Assembly (NCBI GenBank): GCA_964247135.1 | Contig: CAXTTL010000001.1 | Location: forward strand, 37,887 to 101,886 | Origin: an uncultured Deinococcales bacterium | Lineage (GTDB): Bacteria; Deinococcota; Deinococci; Deinococcales; JAAFIG01 | Reading direction: 5' to 3' | Length of the DNA: 64,000 nt | Part shown: positions 10,123-58,330 of the stretch, in pieces | How positions within the stretch are numbered: position 1 is the stretch's first letter | Layout: every line of letters begins with the position of its first letter | Notes under the pieces: generated by a model | Databases searched by the model: none | What the model was told of the DNA's origin: nothing | Seen by the model: only the letters and a program-made list of their open reading frames with translations | Program-made: the position numbers and the translations under genes

Positions 10123-10130
10123 AATTATTT

Positions 10131-12082: not shown

Positions 12083-12083
12083 G

Positions 12084-13253
12084 ATGCTCAAAGCAAAACT
12101 CGGTGAGGTTCAAGCGTATTTGCGCGAGGCAAAGCTTGACGGTTGGTTGCTGTTCGATTTTCGGGGCATGAACCCCTTCGTCAAACGTGTTCTGAGTCTC
12201 GAGGGCAAGGGCTTGTTGACGCGGCGTTGGTTTGTCTGGATTCCCGCACAGGGCGACCCGAGCGTCACAGTTCACGCCATCGAGCACGGTTCTTTTCCCG
12301 AAACCGGTTTTGCCACCTCGAGTTACTCGAGTCGCAGCGACCTGAGCGAAAAATTGCGAGAAACGCTTGGCAATGCCAAACGCATCGTCATGGAATACTC
12401 GCCGCAAAACAACAACCCGTATGTTTCCAAGGTGGATGCTGGCACAGTCGAACTCGTGCGTGGCTTGGGTGTTGAAGTTTTCAGTTCTGGCGACATCCTG
12501 CAATTGTTTTTGGCATGGAGCGACACGCAACTCGAGAACCACAGAAAAGCCTCTCAAGCCCTCACCGAAACCAAAGATGCGGCGCTCGGTTTGATCCGCG
12601 AACATGCCTCGAGCCAAAAACCGCTAACCGAATACGAGTTGCAATCGTTCATGTGCCGTCAGATGGAACAACGCGGCATGATTTACGACCACGCGCCAAT
12701 CGTCTGCTTTGGACGAACCTCCAACGACCCGCATTACACCCCGTCTGAAACGCATTCCAACCCGCTCGAGCCTGGGGCAATTTTGATGGATTTGTTCTGT
12801 CAAACCTCCAAAAACGATCCCTTTGCAGACATCACCTGGATGGCGCACCTTGGCACACCCTCTGCCGAATTCATGCGTGCGTTTGATCGCGTCACCGCCT
12901 CTCGAGATGCAGGTGTGAATTTTCTGCGTTCAAGGCTCGAGGCGGGCAATGACGTTCAAGGCTTTGAAGTCGATCAGGTTGTGCGTCAAGTTTTGATTGA
13001 CGCAGGTTACGAAAAATATTTGTTGCACCGCACCGGTCACAGCCTCGGCTGCACTGCCGTGCATGGCGATGTCGCGCATTTTGACGGCATCGAAACCCTC
13101 GACGAACGCCGTGTTTTGCCGCGCCTTGGCTTCACCATCGAACCAGGCGTCTACCTGCCCGAATTTGGTGTGCGCAGCGAAATCAATGTGTACAGCCTCG
13201 AGCGTGGTCTCGAGATCACCACCGCCATTCAACACGCATTGGACGTGATTTGA
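12084..13253 (+). CDS. M24 family metallopeptidase (Xaa-Pro aminopeptidase/creatinase-like)
   Basis: 389 aa. Pita-bread fold metal-ligand context is present: DITWMAHLG, HRTGHSLG, EPGVYLPEFGVRSEINV. The gene starts 1 nt after the ATPase stop. Confidence 0.8.
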   Translation: MLKAKLGEVQAYLREAKLDGWLLFDFRGMNPFVKRVLSLEGKGLLTRRWFVWIPAQGDPSVTVHAIEHGSFPETGFATSSYSSRSDLSEKLRETLGNAKRIVMEYSPQNNNPYVSKVDAGTVELVRGLGVEVFSSGDILQLFLAWSDTQLENHRKASQALTETKDAALGLIREHASSQKPLTEYELQSFMCRQMEQRGMIYDHAPIVCFGRTSNDPHYTPSETHSNPLEPGAILMDLFCQTSKNDPFADITWMAHLGTPSAEFMRAFDRVTASRDAGVNFLRSRLEAGNDVQGFEVDQVVRQVLIDAGYEKYLLHRTGHSLGCTAVHGDVAHFDGIETLDERRVLPRLGFTIEPGVYLPEFGVRSEINVYSLERGLEITTAIQHALDVI

Positions 13254-13287
13254 TGTTTCAAACCACCCCCGCGATGTTCCAAACAAC

Positions 13288-13507
13288 ACCCGTAGGGTGC
13301 GCTCTCGAGCGCACCGCCCACAAACCCACCCATCTCGAGCGCACCCCCACACCCCCCAACCCCAACAAAAAAATCACACAAAATGCTTTTGAACCTCGAG
13401 AAACGAATGATGTAAATGTTGTGTTTGGCAACAAAAAAATCATGGGCAATGCTTTTGAACCTCGAGCAATGTGATGCCAATGTGGTGCGCTCAAGAGCGC
13501 ACCCTAC
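13288..13507. mobile_element. REPIN/MITE-like non-autonomous element B (inverted copy of the element A family)
   Basis: The terminal hairpins are 13296-13315 (GGTGCGCTCTCGAGCGCACC) and 13484-13503 (GGTGCGCTCAAGAGCGCACC). The C-rich arm is CCGCCCACAAACCCACCC...CCCCCCAACCCC. Internal modules read AAAAAAATCA..AATGCTTTTGAACCTCGAG (x2). The sequence aligns to the reverse complement of element A. The element lies between the M24 peptidase and hyuA. Confidence 0.75.
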
Positions 13508-13562
13508 TACAATTTTTTGCAATTAAAATTTCGCATCAATTTAATACCATCAGGAGGAATCC

Positions 13563-18368: not shown

Positions 18369-20534
18369 TCAAGTTGAGGGCTTTTCAGAATTGGCTCGAG
18401 ATTCGAGCCACCGGATGACACTATACCCAATCAGGACTTGGGTTCTGACACCAAGGTCAAAGCGCCCGCCGTAAACCGTTTCGTCTGGCATCTCGGTGAT
18501 GACGGTGATCGTGCCGCATTCTTCGGGTTGTCCTGGCAAACCTCGAGCCGAGGATCGTGCCTCGCGCTCCCAAAACTGAAACGGCAGTCCATCGATCAGC
18601 TCGAAAGGGTCTTTGAGCACGTGCGGGGCGCGTTGACGCAGTGCCTCGCGTGTCCGCTCAAAGATTTCAGCGTCCGAGGCGAGGTCAGCCGCAATGACTG
18701 CCGCGAGTTCTCGAGCCAAGGTTTTTTGGCTGGCATCGTGAACCACAATCACCATCGCGCCCATCGGCAGCGCCCAGAGTTCAAAACCTCGAGGGGCATA
18801 ACCGGTATAGGGGCGGGTCCATTCGTGGGCTGGGTAGCCGTGAAGGTTGAGATGCACGTGTGGACGGGTTTGAGCCAGCACCAACCCGAGTGCCGCGCCC
18901 TCATGCTGCTGGCTGGCTTCCACGTCCACGCCAAGCGCGGTGTAGCGGGCTGGGTGGTGCATGTGCTCGGGGTGAAGCTGTCTGAGCGCACGGTAAAGCC
19001 GCAGACCGTCAGGGTTTTTGAGCGGCACACCGACCAGATTGATCGACTTGTTCGACAACCAACCCTCGAGCAACTCGAGCGCTGCTTTTGGACCCGTGGG
19101 TTCGTTCGCGTGTTGCCCAGCGGTCAAGAGGAGCGTCGGAAGTTGTGGGTCAAGGCGAGTACCGATCATCGGAATGGGGCGACCCTCGAGGCTGTAACCG
19201 AGAACCTGAATCAAAGCATCTGGAACTTGACCGAGGCGCTGGATTTCTTGCCAGATGTCTCGTGCCGAGAGCGGACCGTTGGGCAGTGAAGCTTTGGGTT
19301 TAAAACCATCAATCAAGCTCTTGAAATGTTGTTGCGGGTTTTGGGTCAGCCTGCTCGAGTCGCTGGCATGGATTCCAGCGCTCTGTATAATCTGCTCCGC
19401 AGGCACAAGTTTTACCGTTCCTTGAGCGCTTTTGACGCCAAGTGAACCCTCTCCAAGCAAGGTCAGGGTGACTCGAGCCTGCCCATCTTGACCGAGGTGT
19501 TCGCTGAAGATGGGTACGATTTTGCCGACCTTTAAACCCCGTCCGCCAGCCGGTGCGCCAACGTGACGCTGGAACGCCTCGAGGCTGCTGAAATAAACCT
19601 CTTCAGCGAGCGCCTCGAGCATTGAGACACGTTCGGGTTCGATGCTCAGCGCAAGATCGGGTTCGGAGAGCTTGCCCGTGACGGTCAAACACTGAAAAAA
19701 CGGTCCCGTTTTGGGGCTGAGCGCCAAAATTTGCGGCAACACCTCGCGTTCGTACCAAGTCCAGAAGCGTTCGCCATCGGTTGGAATTTGACGCGTCCAG
19801 TGTTTGGAGTCGCTGCGCACCTCGAGCCAACCCGTGGGTGAAAGCACCGTCTCATTTTCCAGTGTTCGTGTCGATTGAGGGGCGAGACAAGTGCCGTCCC
19901 ACAGTTGACTGTCTCCCGCAAAGGCGGTGGCTTGATAGCACACTTGGGTGCTTTGGGTGGCGATCATCTCGAGGCTGATTCCGTTTCGTTCACACAGGCT
20001 CGAGGCTGGATACAATTCCTGTAGAAAACGTCCCGCCGAGGCGTTGGGGACAACTGGATACTGCACATGCAAGCGATCCGCTCCAAGTTGGCGCAATCTT
20101 GGCAGCACCTCCTCGAGCAACCAGAACAGCGCGGGTTTGTAGCTGCTGCGAATTGTCACTCGAGCCTGTACCCCTTTGCGCCGCAAGCGTGCTTGGGCTT
20201 CAAGCGCGAACTGTCGTCGGACTTCGGGCGGCTCGGAGAGGTAACCGAGCACCTGCACTGACTTTGCTGCGCCCAAACGGATGTCACCCAGTGCCTTCAG
20301 CCAAACCTTGCCCTCCCAAGGAAAAGTGGCGCTCCAGACATGACGTGTACCTCGAGCGGTGTTGCGGATGTTCAAGCCCGTCATCTTTCGTGCCGCATGG
20401 GGTGGAAACGGCATCAGCAGTTCGACGCTCGAGGCATCGGCAATTGCCATGACCGCCGCCAAGCGGTCCCAGGGGTTTTCGGCATTTGGCAGCGCTTGAC
20501 TCGAGCCGTCTTGTTGCGTGTCCTTAGCTTGCAT
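18369..20534 (-). CDS. M14-like zinc carboxypeptidase domain protein with ~480-aa N-terminal region of unknown function
   Basis: The C-terminal third contains HxxE (LLLTAGQHANEPTG), NPDG and a distal His (HVHLNLHGYPAHEW), as in M14/AstE-AspA-type zinc hydrolases. I recognised nothing in the N-terminal part. I preferred the start MQAKDTQQ at 20534 over track start 20672. It is the last gene of an SBP-permease-permease operon. Confidence 0.6.
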   Translation of the reverse strand: MQAKDTQQDGSSQALPNAENPWDRLAAVMAIADASSVELLMPFPPHAARKMTGLNIRNTARGTRHVWSATFPWEGKVWLKALGDIRLGAAKSVQVLGYLSEPPEVRRQFALEAQARLRRKGVQARVTIRSSYKPALFWLLEEVLPRLRQLGADRLHVQYPVVPNASAGRFLQELYPASSLCERNGISLEMIATQSTQVCYQATAFAGDSQLWDGTCLAPQSTRTLENETVLSPTGWLEVRSDSKHWTRQIPTDGERFWTWYEREVLPQILALSPKTGPFFQCLTVTGKLSEPDLALSIEPERVSMLEALAEEVYFSSLEAFQRHVGAPAGGRGLKVGKIVPIFSEHLGQDGQARVTLTLLGEGSLGVKSAQGTVKLVPAEQIIQSAGIHASDSSRLTQNPQQHFKSLIDGFKPKASLPNGPLSARDIWQEIQRLGQVPDALIQVLGYSLEGRPIPMIGTRLDPQLPTLLLTAGQHANEPTGPKAALELLEGWLSNKSINLVGVPLKNPDGLRLYRALRQLHPEHMHHPARYTALGVDVEASQQHEGAALGLVLAQTRPHVHLNLHGYPAHEWTRPYTGYAPRGFELWALPMGAMVIVVHDASQKTLARELAAVIAADLASDAEIFERTREALRQRAPHVLKDPFELIDGLPFQFWEREARSSARGLPGQPEECGTITVITEMPDETVYGGRFDLGVRTQVLIGYSVIRWLESRANSEKPST

Positions 20535-21408
20535 TGCTGCGCCCTCGATCCAGCGGATCAAGGCGATCCCGCAGCCAGTCTCCGAGCAAGTTGAAACCGA
20601 GCACCGTGACCGTGATCGCCAGCCCTGGAAAGGTGGCAACCCACCAGGCGGTCTGCATGTAATTGCGTCCATCGGCGAGCATGCCGCCCCATGAGGGAAT
20701 CAGTGGGTCAATCCCAAGTCCCAAAAAAGTCAGACCAGACTCGAGCAGGATGTTGTTGGCAACGTTGAGCGTGGCAAGCACAATCACGGGTCCGATCAGG
20801 TTGGGCAGCAAATGGCGCAAGATGATGCGGGCATCGGAGGCACCGAGCGCTCGAGTGCCTTGCACCGCGTCGCCTTCGCGCAAGGTTAGCACCTGTGAGC
20901 GCACCATTCGGGCATACTGCACCCACTGGGTGAGCGCCATGACAAAGATCAACTTCCACAAGCCTGGTCCAATCACGGCGATCACGGTGATTGCCAACAG
21001 AATAAATGGAAATGAAAGTTGCACGTCCGCGATTCGCATCAGCACCATGTCGAGCAAGCCACGGTAAAATCCCGCCAGCAAGCCAATCCCGACCCCGACG
21101 ATCAAAGAGAGGGCAACCGAGACAAAACCAACGGTCAGTGAAATTCGCCCACCGTGGGGAATTCGGGTCAGGATGTCACGCCCGATGGCATCGGTCCCAA
21201 ACAGATGCCCCTCCAAACTGGGTGGCTTGAGGCGATTGGCAAGGTTCATGCTTTCCGAACCGAGCGGTGCAAAAACCGGAGCGAGCAATGCCGAAAACAC
21301 CGAGACGCCCAGCAGCACCAGACCGAGCACCAGGTCAAAATTCAAAGTGCGTTTGACTCGAGGAAGTGGTTGTGATGCGCTCATGTTGAACACCTCATTG
21401 CGCTTCAT
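20524..21408 (-). CDS. ABC transporter permease (DppC-like)
   Basis: 294 aa. The sequence contains LFGTDAIGRDILTRIPHGGRISL and NILLESGLTFLGLGIDPLIPSWG. Its start overlaps the upstream permease stop. Confidence 0.9.
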   Translation of the reverse strand: MKRNEVFNMSASQPLPRVKRTLNFDLVLGLVLLGVSVFSALLAPVFAPLGSESMNLANRLKPPSLEGHLFGTDAIGRDILTRIPHGGRISLTVGFVSVALSLIVGVGIGLLAGFYRGLLDMVLMRIADVQLSFPFILLAITVIAVIGPGLWKLIFVMALTQWVQYARMVRSQVLTLREGDAVQGTRALGASDARIILRHLLPNLIGPVIVLATLNVANNILLESGLTFLGLGIDPLIPSWGGMLADGRNYMQTAWWVATFPGLAITVTVLGFNLLGDWLRDRLDPLDRGRSNAS

Positions 21409-30610: not shown

Positions 30611-30779
30611 AAACCAAATTGCTCAGCATGACTCAACCCAAGAGATAAAAAATTCAGCGAGAAAATTCTCAATCCGTGGCAACCAACCCGAGCTGCATTC
30701 GATGACGTGATTCTGGAGGCTGTTCAAGCCCCAATGTTGCTCGAGTGCTTGCAGGTCAAAATCCTTTTGCCTCAAACTG

Positions 30780-31244
30780 TTATGGCTCGAGATACCCGCT
30801 CGAGAGTGTCAAGCTTCGTTGGTGCTGGGCTGCCTGTTCAAGGATGCTTTGTTGTTGGTCGCGTTTGGCACGGTAAAAACCTAAACCTGTTTCAATTTGC
30901 TTGGCTTTTGAATCACTTGCCAAGCCAAACGTCAAACAACCAAATAAATTCTCCAAGGCTCGAGCACGTTTGTCTTTGGCGTTTTTGTATCTGACACGAC
31001 GCTCGATCACTTCAGTCGTTACCATCTCGAGCAACTGCGCATCGGTTTTGATCGCCAGATCAAACTTTGGCACGCCCACACCGTGCATCGAAACCCAGAC
31101 ATCCATTGGAATTTGTACCATTACCGATTGCCGACTGACCTCAAATTCGGCGTGGTCAAGCTCGAGATAGACGTTGGCATCGTCAAATGCCTCGAGGTAA
31201 AAGTGAAAGTGATTGCCGTGGCTGAGGGTGGCTTTGGTACTCAT
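30780..31244 (-). CDS. Hypothetical protein
   Basis: This ORF shows coding-like periodicity but I recognised no family (MSTKATLSHGNHFHFYLEAFDDANVYLELDHAEFEV...). The start is uncertain (31244 vs 31361). It is divergent from the Uma2-domain gene. Confidence 0.4.
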   Translation of the reverse strand: MSTKATLSHGNHFHFYLEAFDDANVYLELDHAEFEVSRQSVMVQIPMDVWVSMHGVGVPKFDLAIKTDAQLLEMVTTEVIERRVRYKNAKDKRARALENLFGCLTFGLASDSKAKQIETGLGFYRAKRDQQQSILEQAAQHQRSLTLSSGYLEP

Positions 31245-31360
31245 CAGCTCGAGCTTACAAATTTGTGCACGATGTTGCGTTTGCCATACGGCGTACAACG
31301 GGTACGCAAAATGGTGGATGCCAACAAACCACGAGGTATCATTGTGGTTGGGTAAAATCA

Positions 31361-32380
31361 ATGCAGGATTTAGAACGCAAAATCGAATTGCTTGGTGGCT
31401 CGGTGGTCATTGGTCGCCATCCCAATGGTGCTATCGGTATGTTGCAACTGTTGTTGCAAAGCTGGAATCTCAAGCAGATCCTCGAGCTTGCCGATCAAAC
31501 CCAGTGGCAGTTGGCATTGAAGCAACTCGGTGTCCCAGAAGACCAGACCCAACTTGAGGCATGGAGGAAACAACAACCAATCCCAGCCTCGAGCAGTTTT
31601 GACTTGTTTGAGAGCCAAGCCAGCGATTGGTGGTTGCATCATCAGGTGCTGCAAAAATTGCGGTTTGGCTTGCTCGAGCTTGAAGGTACTGGATTGATCG
31701 AATCGTTTGGTTTTGGCTTTGTGATGCGCTGTGGAAACGATATTTTGATGCCCGATATTTATGTTGGAAAACTTGACCCAAGTCGTGTTCATGAATACCA
31801 TTACAACGGACCCGCCGAACTGATTGTTGAAGTCCTCAAAAGCGATACTCGAGATTATGATGGCAGCGTTCAACTTGCCATGTACCAGAAGCATCAAGCC
31901 GCTGAAATTTGGTTGATAGACCCAACCCAGCAGCAGGTTGAGGTATTCTGCCCTCAAGGAAATGGTTCGTACCAAAAACGGGTTGAAACTCGAGTTTTGG
32001 AATCCAGTGTGCTGCCGCTGCGTTTAAATGTTGCTGCCTTGTTTGAAATTGAGAACAACAATCCGTTTGAGAACAACCTCAAGTTGCAGGCTCGAGCGCG
32101 TCGTCATGAGCAGAATCCTGAATTGGGTTGGACTTGGCTCAAAGACTTGCCGATTACACCAGAACCGCAACAAGTCAGTTTGGATGCGTTTATGACGTTC
32201 GTGCCGGAAGTGAAATTCGAGGGTTCAAACGCCAGGCTCGAAGTGGGCGGGGGTGGCTGGAAGACCACCAGGGACTTGTTGCAATTGCTGATGTATCATC
32301 TTGGTTTGAAACGAACTTTATCGCTTCTTCCCATGCCAGACTGGGTTGCTGTGCTGGCAACCCGTCGCTCGAGGGACTGA
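31361..32380 (+). CDS. Uma2 (DUF820) family putative endonuclease with N- and C-terminal extensions
   Basis: The central block LMPDIYVGK...YNGPAELIVEVLKSDTRDYDGSVQLAMYQKHQAAEIWLIDPTQQQVEVF matches the PD-(D/E)xK Uma2 pattern (PD...EVxS...D...K..Y...EYWLVD). About 95 aa of N-terminal and ~120 aa of C-terminal sequence are unassigned. Confidence 0.65.
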   Translation: MQDLERKIELLGGSVVIGRHPNGAIGMLQLLLQSWNLKQILELADQTQWQLALKQLGVPEDQTQLEAWRKQQPIPASSSFDLFESQASDWWLHHQVLQKLRFGLLELEGTGLIESFGFGFVMRCGNDILMPDIYVGKLDPSRVHEYHYNGPAELIVEVLKSDTRDYDGSVQLAMYQKHQAAEIWLIDPTQQQVEVFCPQGNGSYQKRVETRVLESSVLPLRLNVAALFEIENNNPFENNLKLQARARRHEQNPELGWTWLKDLPITPEPQQVSLDAFMTFVPEVKFEGSNARLEVGGGGWKTTRDLLQLLMYHLGLKRTLSLLPMPDWVAVLATRRSRD

Positions 32381-32532
32381 ATTCCGTGTGCTATTCGTGT
32401 GCTATGGCTCAAGACATGTCAGTTAAAAGGTGTACAGCTCACTTACTTTGATTTTAAGGAATGTATCGTTTTGAATAGCTATTTCTTGAATTGAATAGGA
32501 CTGACTTACCCTGATGTTTCTCTCTAAAAACC

Positions 32533-32579
32533 TGCTTTTAATCAGTGGGTCGCTGGTTCGAATCCAGCACGGGCCACCA
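32533..32579 (+). pseudogene. Orphan 3' half of tRNA-Lys(UUU): anticodon loop to CCA
   Basis: CTGCTTTTAATCAGTGGGTCGCTGGTTCGAATCCAGCACGGGCCACCA aligns with the 3' half of bacterial tRNA-Lys (...GACTTTTAATCAATTGGTCGCAGGTTCGAATCCTGCACGACCCACCA in E. coli, from memory). The T-arm is GCTGG-TTCGAAT-CCAGC. No complementary 5' acceptor strand (GGCCCGT) or D-arm exists in the preceding 100 nt. Confidence 0.7.
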
Positions 32580-32593
32580 CAAGAGGTATGTGA

Positions 32594-32628
32594 GAGACGC
32601 GGATTTAAAGTCCGCGTCTCTTCGTTTT
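32594..32628 (+). terminator. Rho-independent terminator downstream of the tRNA fragment
   Basis: A perfect 10-bp stem (GAGACGCGGA-TTTAAAG-TCCGCGTCTC) is followed by TTCGTTTT. Confidence 0.8.
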
Positions 32629-32763
32629 ACGCCCTGAAACCCCAAGCTGCGGCTACCCTGACGCTACCAGCAATCTAAAGGTCTGAATAAAATACATCTC
32701 TCGAGAAATTGGCACGGTGCTTTTGCTTGAGAAAACCTCAGATTGCAGTCCTCTTTTGGACGG

Positions 32764-33054
32764 TCAGGTTATTGGCTCGTTCTTCACACCCGCCACCAGT
32801 TCCTCCAACTCGAGTCTCAACGCTTGAGCAATCATGAACAGCGTCCCAATTCGCGGTTCAACTTTCGCGTTCTCAATCAATCCCACATGAGCACGTTGAA
32901 TCCCCACCAAATCCGCAAAATCGTCCTGATTGATGCCTCGAGCCTTACGGAACGTGCGAATGCGTTCTCCAAGCGCTACCCTGAGCGGGAGTGTGAAGTC
33001 ATTGCACTTGTGATCGCTTTTGCACTGCATACGATGCCGTGTTTTTTGCAGCAC
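32764..33054 (-). CDS. XRE-family (Cro/CI-type) HTH transcriptional regulator
   Basis: LGERIRTFRKARGINQDDFADLVGIQRAHVGLIENAKVEPRIGTLFMIAQALRLELEELV is a classic HTH_3 pattern. The start is uncertain (33054 or 33030). Confidence 0.8.
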   Translation of the reverse strand: MLQKTRHRMQCKSDHKCNDFTLPLRVALGERIRTFRKARGINQDDFADLVGIQRAHVGLIENAKVEPRIGTLFMIAQALRLELEELVAGVKNEPIT

Positions 33055-33338
33055 AATCGAAGTTCATCCTCGAGTTTAGCCCTCGGGTGCCGATCTTCTG
33101 GCGGATGTGTTTTACCGAAAGTTTCCCGCCCCTCCCGATTCCAATCCCCGTGCCGATGCCAATGGTTCATGCCGCTTCGAGGGTCGATACGCAGTGGTTG
33201 AGCGTGCCTGAAGGCTATCCGATTCCTGAGTTGAAAGGCGCGCCACGATTCTAAACGTGAAATAAGCAAACAAAGGCTGGGCTGCTAGCGTGATTCAGGC
33301 AAATGCAGTCCAGCCATGACATCGTTTTTTAATCGCAA

Positions 33339-33752
33339 TTATGGTGCAACCATTTCAACCATGTCTTCTCGAGTATCGGTGATGACCAATGGGCAAACAT
33401 GGCACGCATCCGCACCAGATTGTGAAAACCATCGGCAATCACTGCGAATCGAACAGTTTGGCAAGGTATCGATCATCGGCAAGACCATTTGCGTTTCACT
33501 CGCCATTTCGAGCACATGGTCAATCACACCACAACGCGATCCAGTCCATTGATGACATGCACCCTGAGCACATGGGCTGCTGAACCGAAAGCGCTGCTCG
33601 GGACGACGACCTTGCCTGGCACGATCCACAAAATCTTGGTCTATCACCAACCGATCCTCGAGAAACCCCACGCTTCCATCCTCAAGCACCACACCCAACA
33701 AGATTGCTCCTGGGGTGCTGGTGCTGCTTGGGCAGAGGGGCTTGCCGTCCAT
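33339..33752 (-). CDS. Hypothetical Cys/His-rich protein (137 aa)
   Basis: The ORF has eight Cys, including SSPCAQGACHQW, RCGVIDH, PNCSIRSDC and ADACHVCP. Its start codon overlaps the stop of the upstream 84-aa ORF (TAATG). I recognised no family. Confidence 0.5.
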   Translation of the reverse strand: MDGKPLCPSSTSTPGAILLGVVLEDGSVGFLEDRLVIDQDFVDRARQGRRPEQRFRFSSPCAQGACHQWTGSRCGVIDHVLEMASETQMVLPMIDTLPNCSIRSDCRWFSQSGADACHVCPLVITDTREDMVEMVAP

Positions 33753-34006
33753 TAGCCGCGTGGTCCTGGTCCAACATGAAGCTGTGGGACGGTAAACCGT
33801 GTGCCAAGCTTATCAAGCCAGATGCCCAACCATTCTTTTGGAAAGGCGGGTCTGATTTCGTGGTTCAAATCCAGGTGGGCGATTTCACTTAAAACCATTT
33901 TTTGAATCCCTGCTGCGATACGCTTTTTCGCGTCGGCGTGCAATTCCACGCCCTCGAATTTGACGATGAACTCGGTGCCAGTCAGATCAACTTTTGCCTC
34001 TGTCAT
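33752..34006 (-). CDS. Hypothetical small protein (84 aa)
   Basis: The sequence is MTEAKVDLTGTEFIVKFEGVELHADAKKRIAAGIQKMVLSEIAHLDLN.... It is translationally coupled to the 137-aa ORF and divergent from the giant secreted-protein gene. I recognised no family. Confidence 0.45.
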   Translation of the reverse strand: MTEAKVDLTGTEFIVKFEGVELHADAKKRIAAGIQKMVLSEIAHLDLNHEIRPAFPKEWLGIWLDKLGTRFTVPQLHVGPGPRG

Positions 34007-34524
34007 GATTCACCTCGTGCTCCATCCGGATTGGAGAATGCCTACTGTACACCCACGAAGAAATATTGCTGCTAAATACGCAATTCTACCCGTTATGAAC
34101 GCCAGATTTCGTTCCAAATATTTGAATCTGGTGCATGAAAGTATGCCATATCACTTTTTTTGGCAACACTCGCCATCAGTGGAATCACCGATTCGATTAC
34201 CATTGTTACCATTGTCTTCCAACTTCGCAGGCGCTGAACCGTTTCACTCAATACCAATACAAGCCGAGCGGCATTCTCACTGACCTCGATCACGGCACTG
34301 AACGGACAGCAAATACCGAGAACACCACCCCTGCTTAGGCACTCAAGGAAAGTGATTTATGCAAGGAGTCTGAGGTTGGCATTATTTTTAAATCTACCGG
34401 ATTTTCTTGTTCCCAACACAAAAACAGTCAATTTTGAGCCTCAGATTTAAATTGGGTGTAATGTGAAACTATATCTTTTAGAAGTATTGCATTTTTGGTT
34501 TTAAGGACCTCAAGATTCGCCAGG

Positions 34525-34547
34525 GTCACAGTATAGCTCACTGTGAC
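34525..34547. promoter_or_regulatory. Perfect 8-bp inverted repeat (GTCACAGT-N7-ACTGTGAC) in the leader of the giant gene
   Basis: Read directly from the sequence, 36 nt upstream of ATG 34583. It is either an operator-like site or a 5'-UTR hairpin. A possible sigma70-like promoter (TTGAGC-N17-TGTAAT) lies at 34434-34462. Confidence 0.3.
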
Positions 34548-34582
34548 GATTGGACCAATTCCCAACCCTAAAGGAGGGTGAT

Positions 34583-37500
34583 ATGAGGCTGAAATTCACT
34601 CAGGTTTTGGTGGCGTTCGCAATCTTGGCGGCACTTGTGTTCGTGCCCAAACCTGGACGTGCACAACCTGGGGCACAAGAACCCGTCTACGCACGAGGTT
34701 ACGTCTTTGCCCAGGTGCGTGACCGATTTGAAAAAGCCATCCAGGTGGCGCTGCCCCACGCGGTGGTTTTTTTGGCAAACCCCCAAGACCTCGCCAAACC
34801 GCTCGCCTCGAGCATCACGGATTTAAGCGGTCACTTTCAACTTCGCGCCGATGACCCTGGCGTTTACATGCTGTGCGTCAAAGCCGAAGGTTTTGCAGAC
34901 AATTGTGTCCGAAAAGAATTTCGAGTCTCGAGCGACCTGGGGCATGTCCTGATTCAACCCGTTCAAAGCGATAAAACCGCCGCGATTTACGGTTCGATCA
35001 GCTTGAGGCGGGGCAGGCTGGCACGTGGTTTTGAACCGTTCATGAACGTCAATGCGTTTACCACCATTGAGATGCAGAGCAACCAGGGCAGCTACAAGGG
35101 TTTTGTCAACAACCACGGCGAGTACATTGTGCCCAACATCCCCAACGCCGAAAAATTTAAATTTCGTGCCAGCATCGAAAACGAAAACCTCGAGCGCGAA
35201 ATTTTCATGGGTACACTGATTCCCAACCTTGGCTACAAGTTCGATTTTCGTTTTTCCAATTCTGCGCCCACAACCCGTCTGGTCAGCGCCAGCCTGAACA
35301 ACAAGCTCGTTCAACAGGTCGCCCCAGGCAACACCATCACCTTAACCGCCGTCAGCGATGACAGTGACGCCGATTCGCTCGAGTATCGCTGGTTGCTGCC
35401 CGAAGGTGGGGGCACGGTTGGACCGAACACCACGCCAGAATTAAGCTGGAAAGTGCCCTCGCGCAATGGCTTGTTTACGGTCGTGTCTTTGGTGGGCGAC
35501 CGGCGCGGTGGCTACACCCGCAGCACGATCACGGTTCGTGCCACCAACGGCGGCGTGCCGTTCAACGGTACGGTGGTTGATGCCAACGGCAAACCCGTGG
35601 CTGGCGCTCAGGTGGACGTGAACGGGCGTTTGACCAACAGCGACCTTTCAGGTCATGTCGAACTCGAGGTCCCTGTCGGTGACAAGTACGTGCTCAACAT
35701 CCGCCAGCCTGGGGTGAGCGCACCAGGTCAGGCGGCATTTGGCACGGCTTCGTTTGTTTACACCAGCTCGGTGGTCGGCGAGCGCTGGGTCTTGCGGCGC
35801 TCTGCGGTGACCACTTTTGACCCGACCAAAGCCATCACCTTTCAACACAAACGCGATGAAAAAGACTGTGCCGCCGCCCGTTCACGCTCGAGCCAGATCG
35901 ATTGGAAACAATATTCTCAACCAGGCTTGTTTGAATGGCAAGACGGTCGTGGCAACCCGCAATCCTTGAGCGAGGCAGCCTTCAAAGACCCCAAAGCGGC
36001 ACGCCAGATCATGCGTTTGCTCGCCAAATCCAACCCTGTGGTGGCTCGGGTCTTTGCCCAAGCCGCCAAGGTCGAGGGGCAGTTTGAAACCAGCCCAGTG
36101 CCGTGTCGCAATGGCATCAAGGTCGAGATTCCCGCCAACGCCCTCGAGAATCCCAAAACCAAAAAAGCCCCCACAGGTCCAGTGCAAATTGGGCTTTCGA
36201 CGATTGATCTCAATTCGCCAACCCAAATGCCTGGCGATTACAGCGCCCTGGATGGCAACGGCAAACTTGCTGGCATGGCAAGCTTTGGCGCGGGCAGCAT
36301 TGATGTTGGCGCGGGCAATCAGCGTTTTAACCTCAAACCAGGCATGACCGCCAAAGTCACGATTCCGGTGGATGGCACGCAACTGACCCCTGGCGCGACC
36401 TTGCCCACCAAAATTCCGTTCTTGTACTACAACGAACAAACGGGAGTCTGGAAACAGGAGGGCGAGGCTGTGCTGACCGGTTCGGGCGCAAACGCCGCGT
36501 ATGTCGCCAAAGCCAAACACTTTTCAACCATGAACGCCGATATCTTAAAAACAGGCGAATCCTGCGTTGCCGTCGAGGTTGATCCAGCCGCAGGGTTCAG
36601 TTTCCCACTGAATGTCGAAGTCAACCTCCAACCCTCGGTCGTGAACCCAACCGCCGTTCAAGTCCGAACCCTGACCATCAACTCGAGCGGCGAGCACAGC
36701 GTGATTTACAACCTGCCCAACAAACAAGACATTGCCCTGACCCCGATCATTCCTGGCGTGCTGCCAGATGGCTCGAGCGGCAATGTGCCCGCCGGAATTT
36801 TTGTGGTGAATACTGGCGGACCACAAACCTCGCCCAGCGCACCGCCGACGCCAAATGCCGATGGCACGTATTACAAAGAAGTGGGTGGCAACCCTGTCGG
36901 ACCGTGTGGCTCGAGGGTCACATTGAAAAAATTAAACGGGGCGCAACTTGACCCGCAATACGAATTCTTGCAGGGTTTGTATTTTGAGTCGAGCAACATT
37001 ACTGAATTTGCGGTCAGTGACCCGAGCATCTCGAGCGCGATTGAGGCGGGCAGCGACGATTACTATGCGCAATCTGATCCTCGTCAGCAACGCTTGACCC
37101 TGGCGCAATTTCAAGCGTTCAATCGCTTTGGTCAAGCACAAAACCCAGCAACGGGCGAGGTCGAATTCTCGGCGGTCTATGCCAACAGCGGCGATTTGGG
37201 TTTTGGACGTGAAATGCACTGCCGACGCAACGTGGCAAACGACAGCACCATCGCCACCCCAAAGTTTGATTACGCCTGTTACGTGACCAATTACGGTCAA
37301 CCGCCACTGTTCCGCGACGACCAAACGGACGCCGACGAAGCCGCCAAAGGTCCTGTTGCGGGTCATGCCGATGCCACGGTCACCATGGAATACTCGAGGG
37401 TCGAAAATGCCCCTGGCGATCCAATCGAATTTCCTGATAACGAACGCACCGTCAAGTTTTACGCCTACAACACCCTCACCGGCGTGCGGGTCAAAAAAGC

Positions 37501-38542
37501 TGACCTTGACGGTCATGGCGAACGTCCGATTCCGCAACTGTGCGTGATCTGTCACGGCGGTAAAAGTTCGGATACCGCCGCCGACCCGCTCGACCCAAGC
37601 GGTCCGAAAAAAGGCGCGTACACCGCCCGCAGCGACATGTTCAACAAGAACTCAAAGTTCTTACCGTTTGACCTGCACTACTACAAATTTCCAGCCACCA
37701 AACCCAAAGCAACCCAGCAAAACGACTTCAGAAACCTCAACCTCGAGATCGTGAAGCAGGTGGCGAACGACATTGCACCCAGCAGCCCCATCGGTGAATT
37801 GATTGATGCTTGGTATCCAGGCGGCGCGGGCGACCAACAGGAAGCCAAAGTGATTGCCGGCTGGGACACGGGCGGGGCGGGCAACCCCAACCATCAGGAC
37901 AACCAAATGTACCGCGATGTGTTCGCTCGAGCCTGCCGCACCTGTCATGTGGCGCAGCCTTACAGCGCCCCAAATTACGTGACCGTGGCACAATTCAAAG
38001 CCGACATCGGTAAAATCCAGAGCCGTATTTGCCGTGAAAAAGTCATGCCCCATGCCCAACGCACCAACGATATTTTCTGGAGCAGCCTGAACCCCAACAT
38101 GCCAGGATTCTTGGAAATTTTCGGTCAAGGAACGGGCACTTGGTCAACCGCCCCAAATGACCAGTGCGGCTTGTTCTTCCAACCTGGCAGCGATCCAAAA
38201 TCGTTCTTTGAAAGCCAGATTTACCCAATCCTGACCAAGAACTGCCAGTCGTGTCACGGTTCCGTCGGGCTGGCTCAATTTGCCGTGACCACCCCAGCCG
38301 CAACCTACAACGCGCTGCTCAACACCCCAACCAATGCTGGAGGCTCGAGCCGTTACATCGTGCCCAACAACCTTGGCTCGAGCGTCCTGTACCAGCGCAT
38401 CACAACAGGCGCGGTCGGTGTGCGAATGCCAAAATTTGGGGCTGACCTGACGACCACCGACACCGATGTACCGCCAGACGGAAAATTGGATGCCAATGAA
38501 GTGAAAGACTGGATCACCACCTTTAACGCCACTGGACCGTAA
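34583..38542 (+). CDS. Giant secreted protein: CarboxypepD_reg-like and Ig-like repeats, C-terminal region with three CxxCH motifs (PSCyt1-like cytochrome c domain)
   Basis: The start is ATG 34583 (AAAGGAGGG RBS) with signal peptide MRLKFTQVLVAFAILAALVFVPKPGRAQ. The CarboxypepD_reg-like segments are GYVFAQVRD...SITDLSGHFQL...GVYMLCVKAEGF and FNGTVVDANGKPVAGAQVDVNGRLTNSDLSGHVELEVPVGDKYVL. The CxxCH motifs are CVICH (37541-37555), CRTCH (37934-37948) and CQSCH (38243-38257). The last lies in a PSCyt1-like context (ILTKNCQSCHGS...SSVLYQRIT...RMPKFG). Confidence 0.7.
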   Translation: MRLKFTQVLVAFAILAALVFVPKPGRAQPGAQEPVYARGYVFAQVRDRFEKAIQVALPHAVVFLANPQDLAKPLASSITDLSGHFQLRADDPGVYMLCVKAEGFADNCVRKEFRVSSDLGHVLIQPVQSDKTAAIYGSISLRRGRLARGFEPFMNVNAFTTIEMQSNQGSYKGFVNNHGEYIVPNIPNAEKFKFRASIENENLEREIFMGTLIPNLGYKFDFRFSNSAPTTRLVSASLNNKLVQQVAPGNTITLTAVSDDSDADSLEYRWLLPEGGGTVGPNTTPELSWKVPSRNGLFTVVSLVGDRRGGYTRSTITVRATNGGVPFNGTVVDANGKPVAGAQVDVNGRLTNSDLSGHVELEVPVGDKYVLNIRQPGVSAPGQAAFGTASFVYTSSVVGERWVLRRSAVTTFDPTKAITFQHKRDEKDCAAARSRSSQIDWKQYSQPGLFEWQDGRGNPQSLSEAAFKDPKAARQIMRLLAKSNPVVARVFAQAAKVEGQFETSPVPCRNGIKVEIPANALENPKTKKAPTGPVQIGLSTIDLNSPTQMPGDYSALDGNGKLAGMASFGAGSIDVGAGNQRFNLKPGMTAKVTIPVDGTQLTPGATLPTKIPFLYYNEQTGVWKQEGEAVLTGSGANAAYVAKAKHFSTMNADILKTGESCVAVEVDPAAGFSFPLNVEVNLQPSVVNPTAVQVRTLTINSSGEHSVIYNLPNKQDIALTPIIPGVLPDGSSGNVPAGIFVVNTGGPQTSPSAPPTPNADGTYYKEVGGNPVGPCGSRVTLKKLNGAQLDPQYEFLQGLYFESSNITEFAVSDPSISSAIEAGSDDYYAQSDPRQQRLTLAQFQAFNRFGQAQNPATGEVEFSAVYANSGDLGFGREMHCRRNVANDSTIATPKFDYACYVTNYGQPPLFRDDQTDADEAAKGPVAGHADATVTMEYSRVENAPGDPIEFPDNERTVKFYAYNTLTGVRVKKADLDGHGERPIPQLCVICHGGKSSDTAADPLDPSGPKKGAYTARSDMFNKNSKFLPFDLHYYKFPATKPKATQQNDFRNLNLEIVKQVANDIAPSSPIGELIDAWYPGGAGDQQEAKVIAGWDTGGAGNPNHQDNQMYRDVFARACRTCHVAQPYSAPNYVTVAQFKADIGKIQSRICREKVMPHAQRTNDIFWSSLNPNMPGFLEIFGQGTGTWSTAPNDQCGLFFQPGSDPKSFFESQIYPILTKNCQSCHGSVGLAQFAVTTPAATYNALLNTPTNAGGSSRYIVPNNLGSSVLYQRITTGAVGVRMPKFGADLTTTDTDVPPDGKLDANEVKDWITTFNATGP

Positions 38543-38624: not shown

Positions 38625-38854
38625 ATCCAATACGCGCAATTGGAGCGCTACGAATTTTTCAAGCTTGGAATGTTTTGGTTCATTGGTCGAGGTCAACATA
38701 CTTTTTAGGGTTCTCGGTTGAACTGAGTTGAAACCAACAAGATCAGGCACGGTCGCTCGAGGGTTTGATAGCCCTCGAGCGGATGGAGTACGGCTTTTCT
38801 CTCAAGCAAATCTCAAAGCTCGAGCAACATATTTCTCGAGCATCAGGAGAACAT

Positions 38855-41818
38855 ATGCGAAAAATGCGTCCCGTTTTGAAGTTGATGGTTTTGGTTGTTC
38901 TGGCTGGAGTGCTTACCCTGGCAGATCAAACGGTTCGAGCCGATTTTAACCATGTGACCGACACCAGCAATTTTCTTGCCTTGCCCGTTGCCAGCCTTGA
39001 TGGCATTTTTCCTCAACCTTGGGCGTGTGGTGGCGCAGCGCCAAGCCCGCAGAGTGTGGTGCAACTGCACGCCAACTGGCACTGCGCGAATCCAAATCAT
39101 GTTGGACCCAATTGGGGCAATCGCTTTTTTGGTTTTCACAAGCAGTTCTTGCTGGCGTATGACCGTTACCTTGCCAGTGTTGGCGAAAGCTTCATTCAAA
39201 CCTGGGAGGCTGCGCCAGGCGCATTGATTCCGCCACCGCACCAGGGTCGTCCGGCAAATACGGCTTGCCCAACCTGTCTGGCGTTGCCCAGCCAGTTCAG
39301 GTTGCCCGCCGCCGGAGGCACGCTCGATGCGTTCACGTCTTTGACCGCCATTGGCGATGCCGTCATCAATTGGCACGACACCAACCACGGTCGAATCGCC
39401 AATTCTTTTGCCGCCGCGACCGACATGGGTTCTCCCTCGACCTCACCTCGAGACCCCGTGTTTTACCGCTATCATCATATTTTTGATGATATTCAAGACG
39501 CTTGGCGCACCCATCAAGCCAACGATATTGCGATTGTTTTTGACCGTTCTGGCAGCATGAACCTGCCTGCGGTTGGTGGCGGCACACGCTTGCAAGCCGC
39601 CAAAGATGCCTCCGCCCTGTTTGCCGATTTGCTCGAGGATGGCAGTGCGCACAAGTTGGGGATGGTTTCGTTTTCGACCACTGCCAGCGCCGTGCCAGAC
39701 ATGCCTTTAACCGCTGTCGCCAGCGCCAGCTCGAGCATGACCAGCGCACTGGCTTTGATTGCGGCTGGAGGTTCAACCAGCATCGGTGATGGTCTGACCA
39801 AAGGGCAAGCCTTGGTGGCTTCGGGTGCGAATCCGCGCAAAGCCATCTTGTTGCTGACCGACGGCATGGAAAACACCGCACCGCTGATTTCAAGCGCCGC
39901 GCCTGGACTGGGCGACACGCATGTTTGTTCGGTTGGGCTTGGAACGCCCGGAACTTTGGACGGCGAAAAACTGCAACAACTCAGCGAACGCCAAGGTGGA
40001 ATTTACATCAGTGGACCGAGTGCGCTCGAGTTAAAAAAGTTTTTTGTCTTTTGCTTCGCCGATATTTTCGATACCTTTGTTGGCGCCGACCCAATCCAGA
40101 CGCTGCCAGCCAACCAAATTGCCTCCAAGCCACTGATCCACGGGGCGCTCGACGATCAAAAACTGGTGTTTGTTTTGTCCTGGACACACCCACTGCCAAA
40201 CGGTGCGCTGCGCTTGGCAATCACCCGACCAGATGGCACAAGCCTGTCCCTGAATGATCCAAACGTTGAAAGCACCTTCGGTCCAACCTGGCACATTGTG
40301 CGCATCAAGAATGTCTCGAGTGCAGACCGTGACGGGCGCTGGTTGGCTCGAGCCATAAGACCACATCGCGGTTTTATCAACGGTTTTGTTTCCTATCCTT
40401 TTCAGGATGACGTTGCGGGGATCAACCTGATCCGTTCGCAACTGGCTCGTCTTTGCCCCGAGGGTTGCAGGCGCGTGTTGTACTTTGAAGACCCGCACGG
40501 TCACGAAACCTTTGAAGAGCACCTGAGCATTTACGATGCTGCCATCTTCACTGAGGCTGGACGCAGCATCGGCACGGTTGAGGTTGAAAACGACCCCAAA
40601 GCCTTTGCCGAAAAACTGGCGCAAGGTGGGCAAGATTACGACCTGATCGTCTCGAGCGTCAGTCATGAAAACAAAGACCAGCCTTTTGATGCGCCGCTGG
40701 CAAAATTGTTGTGCTTTGCCCAGGGACCAAAATTTATTGTGGCGGACAACCGAGAAACCGCTGGCGCCCAAGCGATCTTGCGTTGCGCGGGGGCAATTCG
40801 AGCGGGCAAGACCAACCTCAAAACCCTGAACTTGGACGGGCAATTGGCGGCTGGAAAATTGCTGTTCCGCACCCCAATGAACATGCCAGGAATGTCCGCC
40901 GACAGTTACGAATTAAAACCAAGTCTTGAGACCAACATCGTTCAGGGCGTCAGCGAACTTGGTGGTGCGTTGATCGTGGCACGTCCGAGCAGCGACATCA
41001 AACCCCAAGACGAACCCTACTTCATGACCTCGTTGACCCGCGCCACAGCTCGAGTTTTACCCTTTGCCTACCGCAGCAATTATTACACCGGCGAATCCCT
41101 GCATCCGACCTTTCACATTCCCGTGTCGTACTGGTCGGCTGCTGGTTACGATTCGATCAAAGCCAGCGTGCGGGTCACACGACCAACTTTGAGCTTGAAT
41201 GCGTTGGTGGCAAAGAACGGCGCGAAAGAACCACAAAACCTTCAGGGCGATACTTTAAGTCCACGCCAAGCCACGATTGCCAGGCTTGATCCAAACGGCA
41301 CTGGAAAACTGATTCCCACCGAAACCAAACGCTTTGCCCTGAACGACGATGCCACCAATGGCGATGGCACCGCCAACGACCATTACTGGGAGGTCGCCCT
41401 GCCAGCCAATTTGACCCAGTTTGACGGGCAGTACGTTTTTCACGCGGTCTTTGAATTGTGCCGTGCCAAAGCTTGCGTCACTCGAGAGGCGGAACAAACC
41501 GTCAACGTCCAGACCAAAGTTTCGCCCAGCAAAACCAAAGTCAGCCTCGAGAAACTCATTGTTGCAGGCAATGCCCGCAACTTTACACGGGTGCTTGTAA
41601 CCCCAGTGGACAATGCGGGCAGTCCACTGGGACCAGGGCTGCTGGATCGTTTGATTCTGACCCCTCAGGGCGATGCCAAACTCGAGCGCAGCGGCGATGT
41701 TGACGGTCGCGGGACGTATGAAATTGTGGTCAGTTGGACGAATACCAACGGCGCACCAAAACTGGTCATTGCACAATTTGGACGACCCAAAGAAACCATT
41801 GTGCTGACACTCAAATAA
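38855..41818 (+). CDS. Secreted type-3 copper (tyrosinase-like) + von Willebrand factor A fusion protein with ~630-aa unassigned C-terminal region
   Basis: The start is ATG 38855 (CAGGAGAA RBS) with signal peptide MRKMRPVLKLMVLVVLAGVLTLADQTVRA. The CuA-like block is LHANWHCANPNHVGPNWGNRFFGFHKQFLLAYDRYL. The CuB-like block is WHDTNHGRI...SPRDPVFYRYHHIFDDIQDAW (~39050-39500). The vWA domain has the MIDAS motif DRSGSM plus LLLTDGMEN (~39520-40080). Confidence 0.7.
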   Translation: MRKMRPVLKLMVLVVLAGVLTLADQTVRADFNHVTDTSNFLALPVASLDGIFPQPWACGGAAPSPQSVVQLHANWHCANPNHVGPNWGNRFFGFHKQFLLAYDRYLASVGESFIQTWEAAPGALIPPPHQGRPANTACPTCLALPSQFRLPAAGGTLDAFTSLTAIGDAVINWHDTNHGRIANSFAAATDMGSPSTSPRDPVFYRYHHIFDDIQDAWRTHQANDIAIVFDRSGSMNLPAVGGGTRLQAAKDASALFADLLEDGSAHKLGMVSFSTTASAVPDMPLTAVASASSSMTSALALIAAGGSTSIGDGLTKGQALVASGANPRKAILLLTDGMENTAPLISSAAPGLGDTHVCSVGLGTPGTLDGEKLQQLSERQGGIYISGPSALELKKFFVFCFADIFDTFVGADPIQTLPANQIASKPLIHGALDDQKLVFVLSWTHPLPNGALRLAITRPDGTSLSLNDPNVESTFGPTWHIVRIKNVSSADRDGRWLARAIRPHRGFINGFVSYPFQDDVAGINLIRSQLARLCPEGCRRVLYFEDPHGHETFEEHLSIYDAAIFTEAGRSIGTVEVENDPKAFAEKLAQGGQDYDLIVSSVSHENKDQPFDAPLAKLLCFAQGPKFIVADNRETAGAQAILRCAGAIRAGKTNLKTLNLDGQLAAGKLLFRTPMNMPGMSADSYELKPSLETNIVQGVSELGGALIVARPSSDIKPQDEPYFMTSLTRATARVLPFAYRSNYYTGESLHPTFHIPVSYWSAAGYDSIKASVRVTRPTLSLNALVAKNGAKEPQNLQGDTLSPRQATIARLDPNGTGKLIPTETKRFALNDDATNGDGTANDHYWEVALPANLTQFDGQYVFHAVFELCRAKACVTREAEQTVNVQTKVSPSKTKVSLEKLIVAGNARNFTRVLVTPVDNAGSPLGPGLLDRLILTPQGDAKLERSGDVDGRGTYEIVVSWTNTNGAPKLVIAQFGRPKETIVLTLK

Positions 41819-58239: not shown

Positions 58240-58265
58240 GCGCCGTATAACGGTGCTTTTTTATT
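58240..58265 (+). terminator. Terminator-like hairpin + T-tract inside the nrdJ 5' leader (possible attenuator)
   Basis: The hairpin GCGCCGT-ATA-ACGGTGC has a 7-bp stem with one G-U pair and is followed by TTTTTTATT. It lies 66 nt upstream of ATG 58331, and there is no upstream plus-strand gene for it to terminate. Confidence 0.35.
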
Positions 58266-58330
58266 GTCGCGCCATCAACACCAAACGATTCAGACGCCAT
58301 GATCGGCGTGCCAACCACAAGGGGAGAACC

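Follow-up and report, generated by a model that had tools for sequence, protein, structure and literature searches.

The 64,000-nucleotide stretch of DNA analysed here, taken from a contig of an uncultured Deinococcales bacterium and called the window throughout, encodes a secreted protein of 1319 amino acids (aa) with three CxxCH motifs, whose residues ~790-1204 form a two-haem module that is undescribed, yet is the real core of a protein family. The exported c-type cytochrome as such is a known kind of protein; the two-haem module is the new part. An initial annotation, made from the sequence alone, had taken the C-terminal part of the protein for a single triple-CxxCH, PSCyt1-like region. 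This region is in fact two separate things, namely the core two-haem module and an optional third domain, as set out in the following features, all of which lie on the forward strand:

34583..38542, forward strand: gene for the 1319-aa secreted three-CxxCH protein, stop codon included (list of open reading frames and translation)
36953..37582, forward strand: alpha+beta domain with haem site 1, residues ~791-1000 (AlphaFold predicted local distance difference test, pLDDT, 92)
37541..37555, forward strand: CxxCH motif 1, CVICH, residues 987-991 (translation)
37583..38194, forward strand: helical domain with haem site 2, residues ~1001-1204 (secondary structure of the model)
37934..37948, forward strand: CxxCH motif 2, CRTCH, residues 1118-1122 (translation)
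38045-38047, forward strand: Met1155, candidate axial ligand of haem 2 (conserved in 284/285)
38195..38539, forward strand: class-I cytochrome c domain of the FoxE/PSCyt1 type, residues ~1205-1319 (PF13442; Met1282 of the RMP motif)
38243..38257, forward strand: CxxCH motif 3, CQSCH, residues 1221-1225 (translation)

Translation confirmed the coordinates of the three motifs that had been reported for the C-terminal part of the protein. They are not of a kind that arises readily by chance, as shuffled versions of the protein contain a mean of 0.0025 CxxCH motifs each, with at least one such motif in just 13 of 5000 shuffles; of the 16 cysteines of the protein six are accounted for by the motifs, and ten lie elsewhere. 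Conservation was counted over 301 copies of the module. The two cysteines and the histidine of motif 1 are kept in 281-282 of 282 copies and those of motif 2 in 285/285, while those of motif 3 are kept in 119-120 of the 120 copies that possess the third domain, which is present in ~40% of copies. Motifs 1 and 2 are found in all 79 genome loci described below and in every intact relative, down to 26% identity, whereas motif 3 belongs to the ~1300-aa forms and is missing from those of ~1100 aa. An alignment of 31 sequences likewise showed all three CxxCH motifs, along with M1155-P-H1157 and M1282-P1283, to be invariant or nearly so. Three marks of a c-type cytochrome were thus found, namely conserved CxxCH motifs, an export signal (judged by eye) and a PF13442 match above its cut-off, the last for the third domain only, and judging from sequence the tail of the protein very probably carries three covalently bound haems. 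A reading in which the CxxCH motifs bind no haem, but form disulfides or a metal site in a protein that is not a cytochrome, could draw on the position of motifs 1 and 2 in a region without a match to any cytochrome hidden Markov model (HMM). We find it scarcely credible, given that the full C-x-x-C-H, histidine included, is invariant at all three sites, that methionines are conserved at ligand-like spacing, that the profiles of motifs 1 and 2 align, if weakly (E 0.01-1.5), with the helix-plus-CxxCH of real cytochromes, that the third domain is a recognised cytochrome c domain, and that the protein is exported, as haem c attachment requires. The initial annotation had described an extracellular or periplasmic protein with the capacity for several haems, and had named the joint lack of a cytochrome HMM match and of CxxCH conservation as the outcome that would speak against it; with export signals in place, PF13442 matched above its cut-off and all three motifs conserved, its description appears sound.

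To define the core module we used an AlphaFold model of residues 790-1319 (pLDDT 92; predicted template modelling score, pTM, 0.81), built from a 136-sequence alignment of database proteins. The model contains an alpha+beta domain with a five- to six-stranded antiparallel sheet and the first CxxCH at its end, and places all three CxxCH motifs in helices, with motifs 2 and 3 closing long helices in the manner of class-I cytochromes. Comparison of the copies revealed that: 1) the haem-1 domain contains the motifs NSGDLGFGR(D/E)MHC, ACYVTNYG, ATV(A/T)MEYSR and ADLDGxGxRPVPQLCxxCHGG. 2) Within it Y827, N868, D871, R876, M878, N903, M935 and D976 are near-invariant over ~280 diverged copies, the two methionines being kept in 272/277 (M878) and 276/279 (M935). 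3) N868, D871, R876, N903, D976, D1030 and Y1110 are each at least 99% conserved. 4) In the helical domain Y1110 is kept in 285/285, M1155 in 284/285 and W1166 in 282/285, and M1155 lies 33 residues after H1122, which is the class-I cytochrome pattern. 5) The near-invariant R876, M878, V901, N903, A931, V933, M935 and F959 are predicted to share one face of the sheet, because the strand residues are spaced at i, i+2 and i+4 (R876/M878; V901/N903; A931/V933/M935), and we infer that this face packs against the predicted haem 1. 6) Cys880 and Cys899 co-vary, both being cysteine in 237 copies, neither in 35 and only one in 4; such joint gain and loss is the pattern that a disulfide pair in an exported protein would be expected to give.

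No Pfam or NCBIfam model covers this core. Scans of the whole protein against both collections found no family for residues ~400-1204, and a Pfam scan of the haem-1 domain in 74 members gave no match. Searches of PDB sequences, comprising one phmmer search and four profiles (the C-terminal 520 aa, the haem-1 domain, the haem-2 domain and the middle region), gave real matches from the third domain alone; for the core, neither phmmer nor the profiles of the C-terminal 520 aa and of the two haem domains found a relative, the core profiles yielding just short helix-plus-CxxCH matches to real cytochromes (E 0.01-1.5). A Foldseek comparison of the pLDDT-92 model of residues 790-1319 with the PDB returned a best E of 0.13, and its top 50 were scattered alpha+beta proteins of T-fold, START and LolA-like types with probabilities of at most 0.11, which we do not regard as evidence. 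On this comparison with the PDB the core module is provisionally a new fold. Literature searches found no description of the architecture, in agreement with the earlier remark that it was not known to be characterised. The module thus has neither a Pfam or NCBIfam model nor a recognisably similar structure, though c-type cytochromes are among the best-catalogued redox proteins.

The third domain, in contrast to the core, has recognisable kin. PF13442 scores 28.3 bits with the whole protein and 33 bits with its C-terminal 520 aa, against a cut-off of 27, and the family profile retrieves from the PDB the iron oxidoreductase FoxE (5mab, E = 4.2e-8) and the alpha subunit of hydrazine synthase (5c2v_A, E = 6.6e-5). 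Its methionine M1282 is kept in 116/116 copies that have the domain, and the domain as a whole is absent from the ~1100-aa and ~500-aa relatives. The SSVLYQRIT...RMPKFG pattern for which the initial annotation had invoked PSCyt1 is present in the 1319-aa protein. PF07635 (PSCyt1) nonetheless gives no match to the window protein at E <= 0.1, and matches 13/76 relatives (best E = 1.9e-5), so that "PSCyt1-like" holds as a loose resemblance of the third domain and fails for motifs 1 and 2, which belong to another module. The domains PSCyt2/DUF1549 and PSD1/DUF1553, which usually accompany PSCyt1, are both missing from the Pfam scan of the 1319-aa protein; among the families that had been suggested for scanning it is PF13620, in the N-terminal part, that scores above its cut-off.

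Ahead of the haem module the protein consists of a chain of beta-sandwich domains (residues 1-790) of CarboxypepD_reg, PKD and FAM171-like types, which together make up ~60% of its length:

34583..34663, forward strand: Sec-type signal peptide, residues 1-27 (MRLKFTQVLVAFAILAALVFVPKPGRA; translation, judged by eye; relatives also begin with hydrophobic signals)
34748..34903, forward strand: CarboxypepD_reg-like beta-sandwich 1, residues ~56-107 (PF13620 stretch, E = 4e-5 for the segment alone)
35318..35536, forward strand: PKD/Ig-like domain, residues ~246-318 (PF00801, also PF22352 and PF18911, segment scanned alone)
35564..35719, forward strand: CarboxypepD_reg-like beta-sandwich 2, residues 328-379 (best PF13620 stretch)
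35780..36952, forward strand: middle region, residues ~400-790 (a small helical sub-domain, then beta-sandwich domains; conserved cysteines 429, 508, 661 and 775)

The hydrophobic N-terminus agrees with the signal peptide proposed earlier, and the two or more CarboxypepD_reg segments are borne out by PF13620, which scores 47.4 bits against a cut-off of 32.3 in the whole-protein scan, in two stretches. The Ig/PKD-like segment is a marginal case: PF00801 reaches 24.4 bits, with a cut-off of 23.5, in a scan restricted to residues 237-325, but stays below threshold in the whole protein; relatives carry precomputed PKD matches. The long middle region, described from the outset as unassigned, has no confident family in the window protein. 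Its cysteines 429, 508, 661 and 775 are invariant in the 31-sequence alignment. An AlphaFold model of residues 400-1319 (pLDDT 70.5) has strands all through 510-782, and its Foldseek comparison with the PDB retrieved nothing beyond generic FN3/Ig-like folds. Residues ~590-640, with the motif IPVD...IPxLxYDExxGxW, resemble the N-terminal extracellular domain of FAM171A1/A2/B: PF10577, the model of that domain, matches 17/70 relatives (best E = 3.7e-9) though not significantly the window protein, and the middle-region profile aligns with FAM171A2 (PDB 9y6n) at E = 0.012. FAM171 proteins, found in animals, are haem-free type-I membrane proteins; the likeness is to a beta-sandwich scaffold, not to a function.

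The module defines a large family. A first database search recovered 39 clusters of full-length relatives with 48-74% identity, whose named sources include Methylobacter, Acidobacteriota, Planctomycetes and Bradyrhizobium, and an exhaustive profile search of 1.84 billion cluster representatives recovered 1944 proteins (50%-identity clusters) at E <= 1e-30. A scan of genomes, with one genome per GTDB species, found 241 loci among the species representatives, 79 of which were kept for analysis. These come from Acidobacteriota, Alpha-, Beta- and Gammaproteobacteria, Myxococcota, Planctomycetota, Verrucomicrobiota, Chloroflexota, Gemmatimonadota and others. The carriers are mostly soil and freshwater bacteria, and cultured ones include several Corallococcus species (Myxococcota), Tistlia consotensis, Parvibium lacunae and Frateuria defendens. 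Identity between phyla is 50-58% across the whole 1300 residues, and the haem module is the most conserved part of the protein, above the stalk. There are three main architectures, with ~1300 aa and three haem sites, ~1000-1150 aa and two haem sites, or ~500-540 aa and the module alone. The module is also fused to F5/8-type-C (discoidin), PKD/fn3 and CarboxypepD_reg domains; in a 3907-aa metagenome protein (P0197) it stands at ~649-1273 among fn3, PKD, P-proprotein and Y_Y_Y domains. The ~500-aa stand-alone proteins (P0111, P0116, P0118, P0120, P0125, P0127, P0136, P0209, P0218, P0220 and P0222) come in several cases from Myxococcota and all have a lipoprotein-type signal at their start, with the lipobox cysteine at about residue 20-30 and a conserved NG(S/T)T-x-SG after it (judged by eye). 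In Bradyrhizobium sp. TZ2 (CP170752.1, a complete genome; loci L005/L013) the homologue at ~10001-13940 is split into genes of 791 and 521 aa in different frames, which reflects either a frameshift (pseudogene) or a sequencing error, and the homologues of L014 and L068 are likewise in two frames.

The abundance of beta-sandwich domains typical of surface proteins, the fusion of the module to PKD, fn3 and discoidin domains in relatives, and weak matches to S-layer proteins (Slr4 at E ~1e-3, SlaB at E = 0.009) could together be read as signs of a mainly structural or adhesive surface protein, S-layer- or adhesin-like, in which the haems are structural or sensing. This is quite improbable, as it is the haem module and not the stalk that is most conserved, the module occurs alone as a ~500-aa lipoprotein, and the S-layer matches fall below the cut-offs. 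An extracytoplasmic location, on the other hand, fits the signal peptide, the lipobox signals of the ~500-aa relatives and the coupled Cys880/Cys899, all of these being features read from sequence. The tight conservation, the swappable anchoring domains and the lack of a conserved partner gene suggest that the module has been selected for a specific task, either in the envelope or outside the cell, and the two-haem module appears to mark a widespread and unstudied class of bacterial redox proteins.

As to what this function is, we lean towards an exported redox relay with a reaction site at haem 1. In such a protein the task of holding the module at the envelope or on a polymer would fall to the beta-sandwich stalk of ~790 aa, and in relatives to a lipid anchor or a discoidin domain. 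The alpha+beta domain would bind haem 1 at its end, through C987/C990/H991, and the helical class-I-like domain would house haem 2 (C1118/C1121/H1122), with Met1155 as the likely sixth ligand of haem 2; where the third domain is present, haem 3 would have His1225 and probably Met1282 as ligands. Electrons might then pass along a short relay from haem 3 through haem 2 to haem 1, the relay exchanging them with the general periplasmic or extracellular redox pool and giving them to, or taking them from, a substrate bound at the haem-1 domain. There the set Y827, N868, D871, R876, N903, D976 and D1030 looks more like a reaction or metal-binding site than like the surroundings of a plain carrier. 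A protein that works alone with common redox partners also fits with the fact that it has no conserved operon partner.

Several observations weigh against a reaction site at haem 1. The near-invariant M878, M935 and M1155 are compatible with both core haems being six-coordinate with His/Met ligands, and if both were so ligated simple electron transfer would be favoured over catalysis. AlphaFold places no haem, and we infer the haem-1 pocket, the ligand assignments and the haem-to-haem distances alike. In FoxE the haems are His/Met-ligated with the methionines swapped between its repeats (PMC10654088). Because of that swap firm ligand assignments are unsafe in the 1319-aa protein, and by analogy the "own-domain" assignments given above may be wrong. 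The conserved acidic and Gly-rich loops DLGFGR and DLDGxG could be structural Ca2+ sites instead of catalytic ones, and in the 79 genome loci and in individual look-ups the neighbouring genes give no hint of a substrate. Our confidence in catalysis is limited mainly by the three conserved methionines and by the Gly/Asp-rich loops, as possible Ca2+ sites. Pure electron transfer, or the action of a metal or humic oxidoreductase, with all haems six-coordinate His/Met and no bond-making at haem 1, is accordingly the alternative to be considered here; the partner could be Fe(II), Mn(II), quinones, humics or a protein, and FoxE does act in this way with Fe(II). The FoxE-like third domain, the three near-invariant methionines available as sixth ligands, the lack of a match to any catalytic family by HMM or fold, and the soil and freshwater habitats of the carriers, where such substrates abound, are all in keeping with it. 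We nevertheless consider it unlikely, for conservation of the ~200-aa haem-1 domain, polar residues included, is much stricter than electron carriers usually show, porin, foxYZ-type or multihaem partner genes are not found nearby, and ~60% of the family does without the FoxE-like domain.

If the relay with its reaction site at haem 1 is carried one step further, the core at ~790-1204 might represent a novel haem-c enzyme fold and the hallmark of a large family of extracytoplasmic oxidoreductases spread across phyla. Haem 1, on its alpha+beta sheet with the invariant Asn/Asp/Arg/Asn/Asp set, would then react with a substrate in the envelope or outside the cell, in some lineages together with a secreted type-3 copper oxidase. 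We offer this fuller proposal tentatively and with low confidence. Were it true, it would represent an unrecognised route of extracellular oxidative chemistry in soil bacteria, acting for example on phenolics, humics or polymers. Knowledge of the substrate could give soil and freshwater redox biology a new class of enzyme or electron transfer.

The candidate for this copper oxidase is encoded next to the 1319-aa gene in the window, and the immediate flanks of the two genes contain the following features:

34567..34582, forward strand: ribosome-binding site AAAGGAGGG plus spacer before the ATG (read from the sequence)
38855..41818, forward strand: gene for a secreted type-3-copper (tyrosinase-like)-VWA protein (likely start ATG 38855 after AGGAG)

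The tyrosinase-VWA protein matches the Pfam VWA model with 44 bits and the tyrosinase model with 21.3 bits, just below the cut-off of 22.6, and its copper-site histidines are kept in three homologues. The pairing of the two genes, to which the initial annotation had drawn attention, is real and recurs between phyla, but involves about 4% of the family loci. From the cytochrome side a tyrosinase-VWA gene lies within 10 kb in 3/79 genome loci, besides the window itself: in Bradyrhizobium sp. TZ2 (L013/L005), where a 1113-aa tyrosinase-VWA gene follows the split homologue, in a Phycisphaera metagenome-assembled genome (L040), and as a weak fragment in L067. From the side of the copper protein the cytochrome adjoins in 3/46 metagenome loci (L104, L107 and L118), with the order reversed in L107. 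There are thus six clear adjacencies (the window, L013, L040, L104, L107 and L118) in several phyla, all involving the three-haem form, and pure chance is unlikely to account for them. The pairing is absent from >90% of loci, including those of the closest relatives of the copper protein, and is at most an optional association, not a defining feature. Save for this occasional tyrosinase-VWA gene, no conserved neighbour was found across the 79 genome loci, three further contigs and three stand-alone or fusion relatives. It might be argued that the two proteins make up a dedicated system, the cytochrome reducing or activating the copper oxidase or processing its quinone products, with an extracellular phenolic as the substrate. 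The same-strand adjacency in the window, L013 and L040, the further adjacency in L104, L107 and L118, the restriction of all six cases to the long three-haem form, and the secreted redox character of both proteins speak for it. Such a system is improbable, however, in view of the low frequency of the pairing from either side, the 313-nt gap with hairpins between the genes, and the partner's closest relatives (59-60% identity), which lack the cytochrome where flanks exist, for instance over 10 kb on each side in L099.

Both hairpins in the 313-nt spacer before the tyrosinase-VWA gene are perfect, one being GGTGCGC-CAT-GCGCACC near 38609 and the other CTCGAGGG-N8-CCCTCGAG at 38757-38780. Upstream of the 1319-aa gene, the ATG at 34583 is preferred as the start over an alternative TTG at 34550 because AAAGGAGGG precedes it by 6 nt. 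About 35 nt ahead of the start codon, at ~34527-34549 in the window, there is a perfect inverted repeat of 8 bp, GTCACAGT-N7-ACTGTGAC, which could be an operator or a hairpin of the 5' untranslated region. The 4 kb upstream (30611-34582) contain a gene for a Uma2-family (PF05685) nuclease at 31265-32380 on the forward strand and several small open reading frames without a Pfam match, and the 32-36 kb bin has the lowest G+C content of the window (0.515 against ~0.55). Genes around the 1319-aa gene encode peptide ABC transporters, hydantoinases, an amidase and dehydrogenases besides the Uma2 nuclease. In a search with hydantoinase B the nearest named relatives came from Meiothermus metagenome-assembled genomes (~75%). 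Among the scanned open reading frames of 220 aa or more in the 64-kb window, no Pfam family of Ccm/CcsBA cytochrome c maturation came up; no Rfam family or tRNA gene was found in the window, a scan for promoters and terminators gave sites no more frequently than in shuffled controls, and an exact look-up of the 1319-aa protein on contigs returned no record.

The window is also marked by the palindrome CTCGAG: dinucleotide-preserving shuffles predict 11.4 +/- 3.5 copies, whereas 385 (6.0 per kb) are present, evenly spread over coding and non-coding DNA; GCTCGAGC has 47 occurrences against 1.2 expected. This hyper-abundant palindrome is comparable to the cyanobacterial HIP1 but is a different word, and a literature search on an abundant CTCGAG palindrome found no description. 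An unrelated metagenome contig (L095, G+C 63%) has the same CTCGAG density, while all other loci have at most 1.8 per kb. As both the 1319-aa gene and the tyrosinase-VWA gene carry CTCGAG (4.0 and 3.7 per kb, respectively), they are not recent arrivals. Elsewhere in the window, an 1817-aa ribonucleotide reductase open reading frame at 58253-63706 on the forward strand (PF02867, PF00317, TSCPD) has intein splicing domains and LAGLIDADG homing-endonuclease domains inserted into it; both kinds give matches in two stretches, so that two inteins may be present. A 766-aa open reading frame at 18369-20672 on the reverse strand, among ABC-transporter and hydantoinase genes, has no Pfam match at E <= 1e-5.

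Among known systems, membership in or kinship with three was considered and dropped. An outer-membrane conduit of the MtrC/OmcA type does not fit, as the protein has three CxxCH motifs in 1319 aa against the ten haems of MtrC, PF22113 gives an E of ~0.1, and porin or cytochrome partner genes are lacking. Cytochrome P460/c'-beta and Tll0287-like proteins (PF11845) have the CxxCH at the C-terminal end of a sheet-containing domain, which resembles haem site 1; kinship with them was not borne out, there being no match to Pfam P460, PF11845 matches in 2/76 members at E = 0.007, and no such protein in the Foldseek top 50. Membership in the di-haem cytochrome c peroxidase (CCP)/MauG family was set aside as well, since there is no match by Pfam CCP_MauG or Foldseek and the one MauG match covers 37 residues at the CxxCH (E = 0.7).

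The closest solved relative of the third domain is FoxE, the di-haem Fe(II) oxidoreductase of Rhodobacter ferrooxidans SW2 (5MAB). The third domain aligns with both FoxE repeats, sharing a helix with CxxCH, an (R)MP methionine motif and a C-terminal W-I-x-x-G-A. FoxE is, however, a protein of ~290 aa that consists of two such repeats alone and is encoded in a foxEYZ operon, whereas the 1319-aa protein has one optional copy at its C-terminus, the likeness covering ~9% of its length, and near its gene there is no gene for a pyrroloquinoline quinone (PQQ) protein or a FoxZ-type transporter. PSCyt1 (PF07635, 'Planctomycete cytochrome C') and the third domain are class-I cytochrome c domains of one kind. 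In the alpha subunit of hydrazine synthase (5C2V chain A) the third-domain profile matches residues 642-765, in its C-terminal haem domain, and both proteins end in a small cytochrome c domain appended to a large multidomain haem protein; the remainder of the 1319-aa protein is unrelated, with no beta-propeller and no anammox context. A parallel to the working proposed here comes from the di-haem cytochrome c peroxidases and MauG, exported, stand-alone enzymes without a dedicated operon partner in which a His/Met electron-transfer haem feeds a second, reactive haem. The haem-1 domain is alpha+beta where CCP and MauG are all-helical, yet, by an analogy drawn from general knowledge, the proposed logic of the 1319-aa protein would be the same as theirs.

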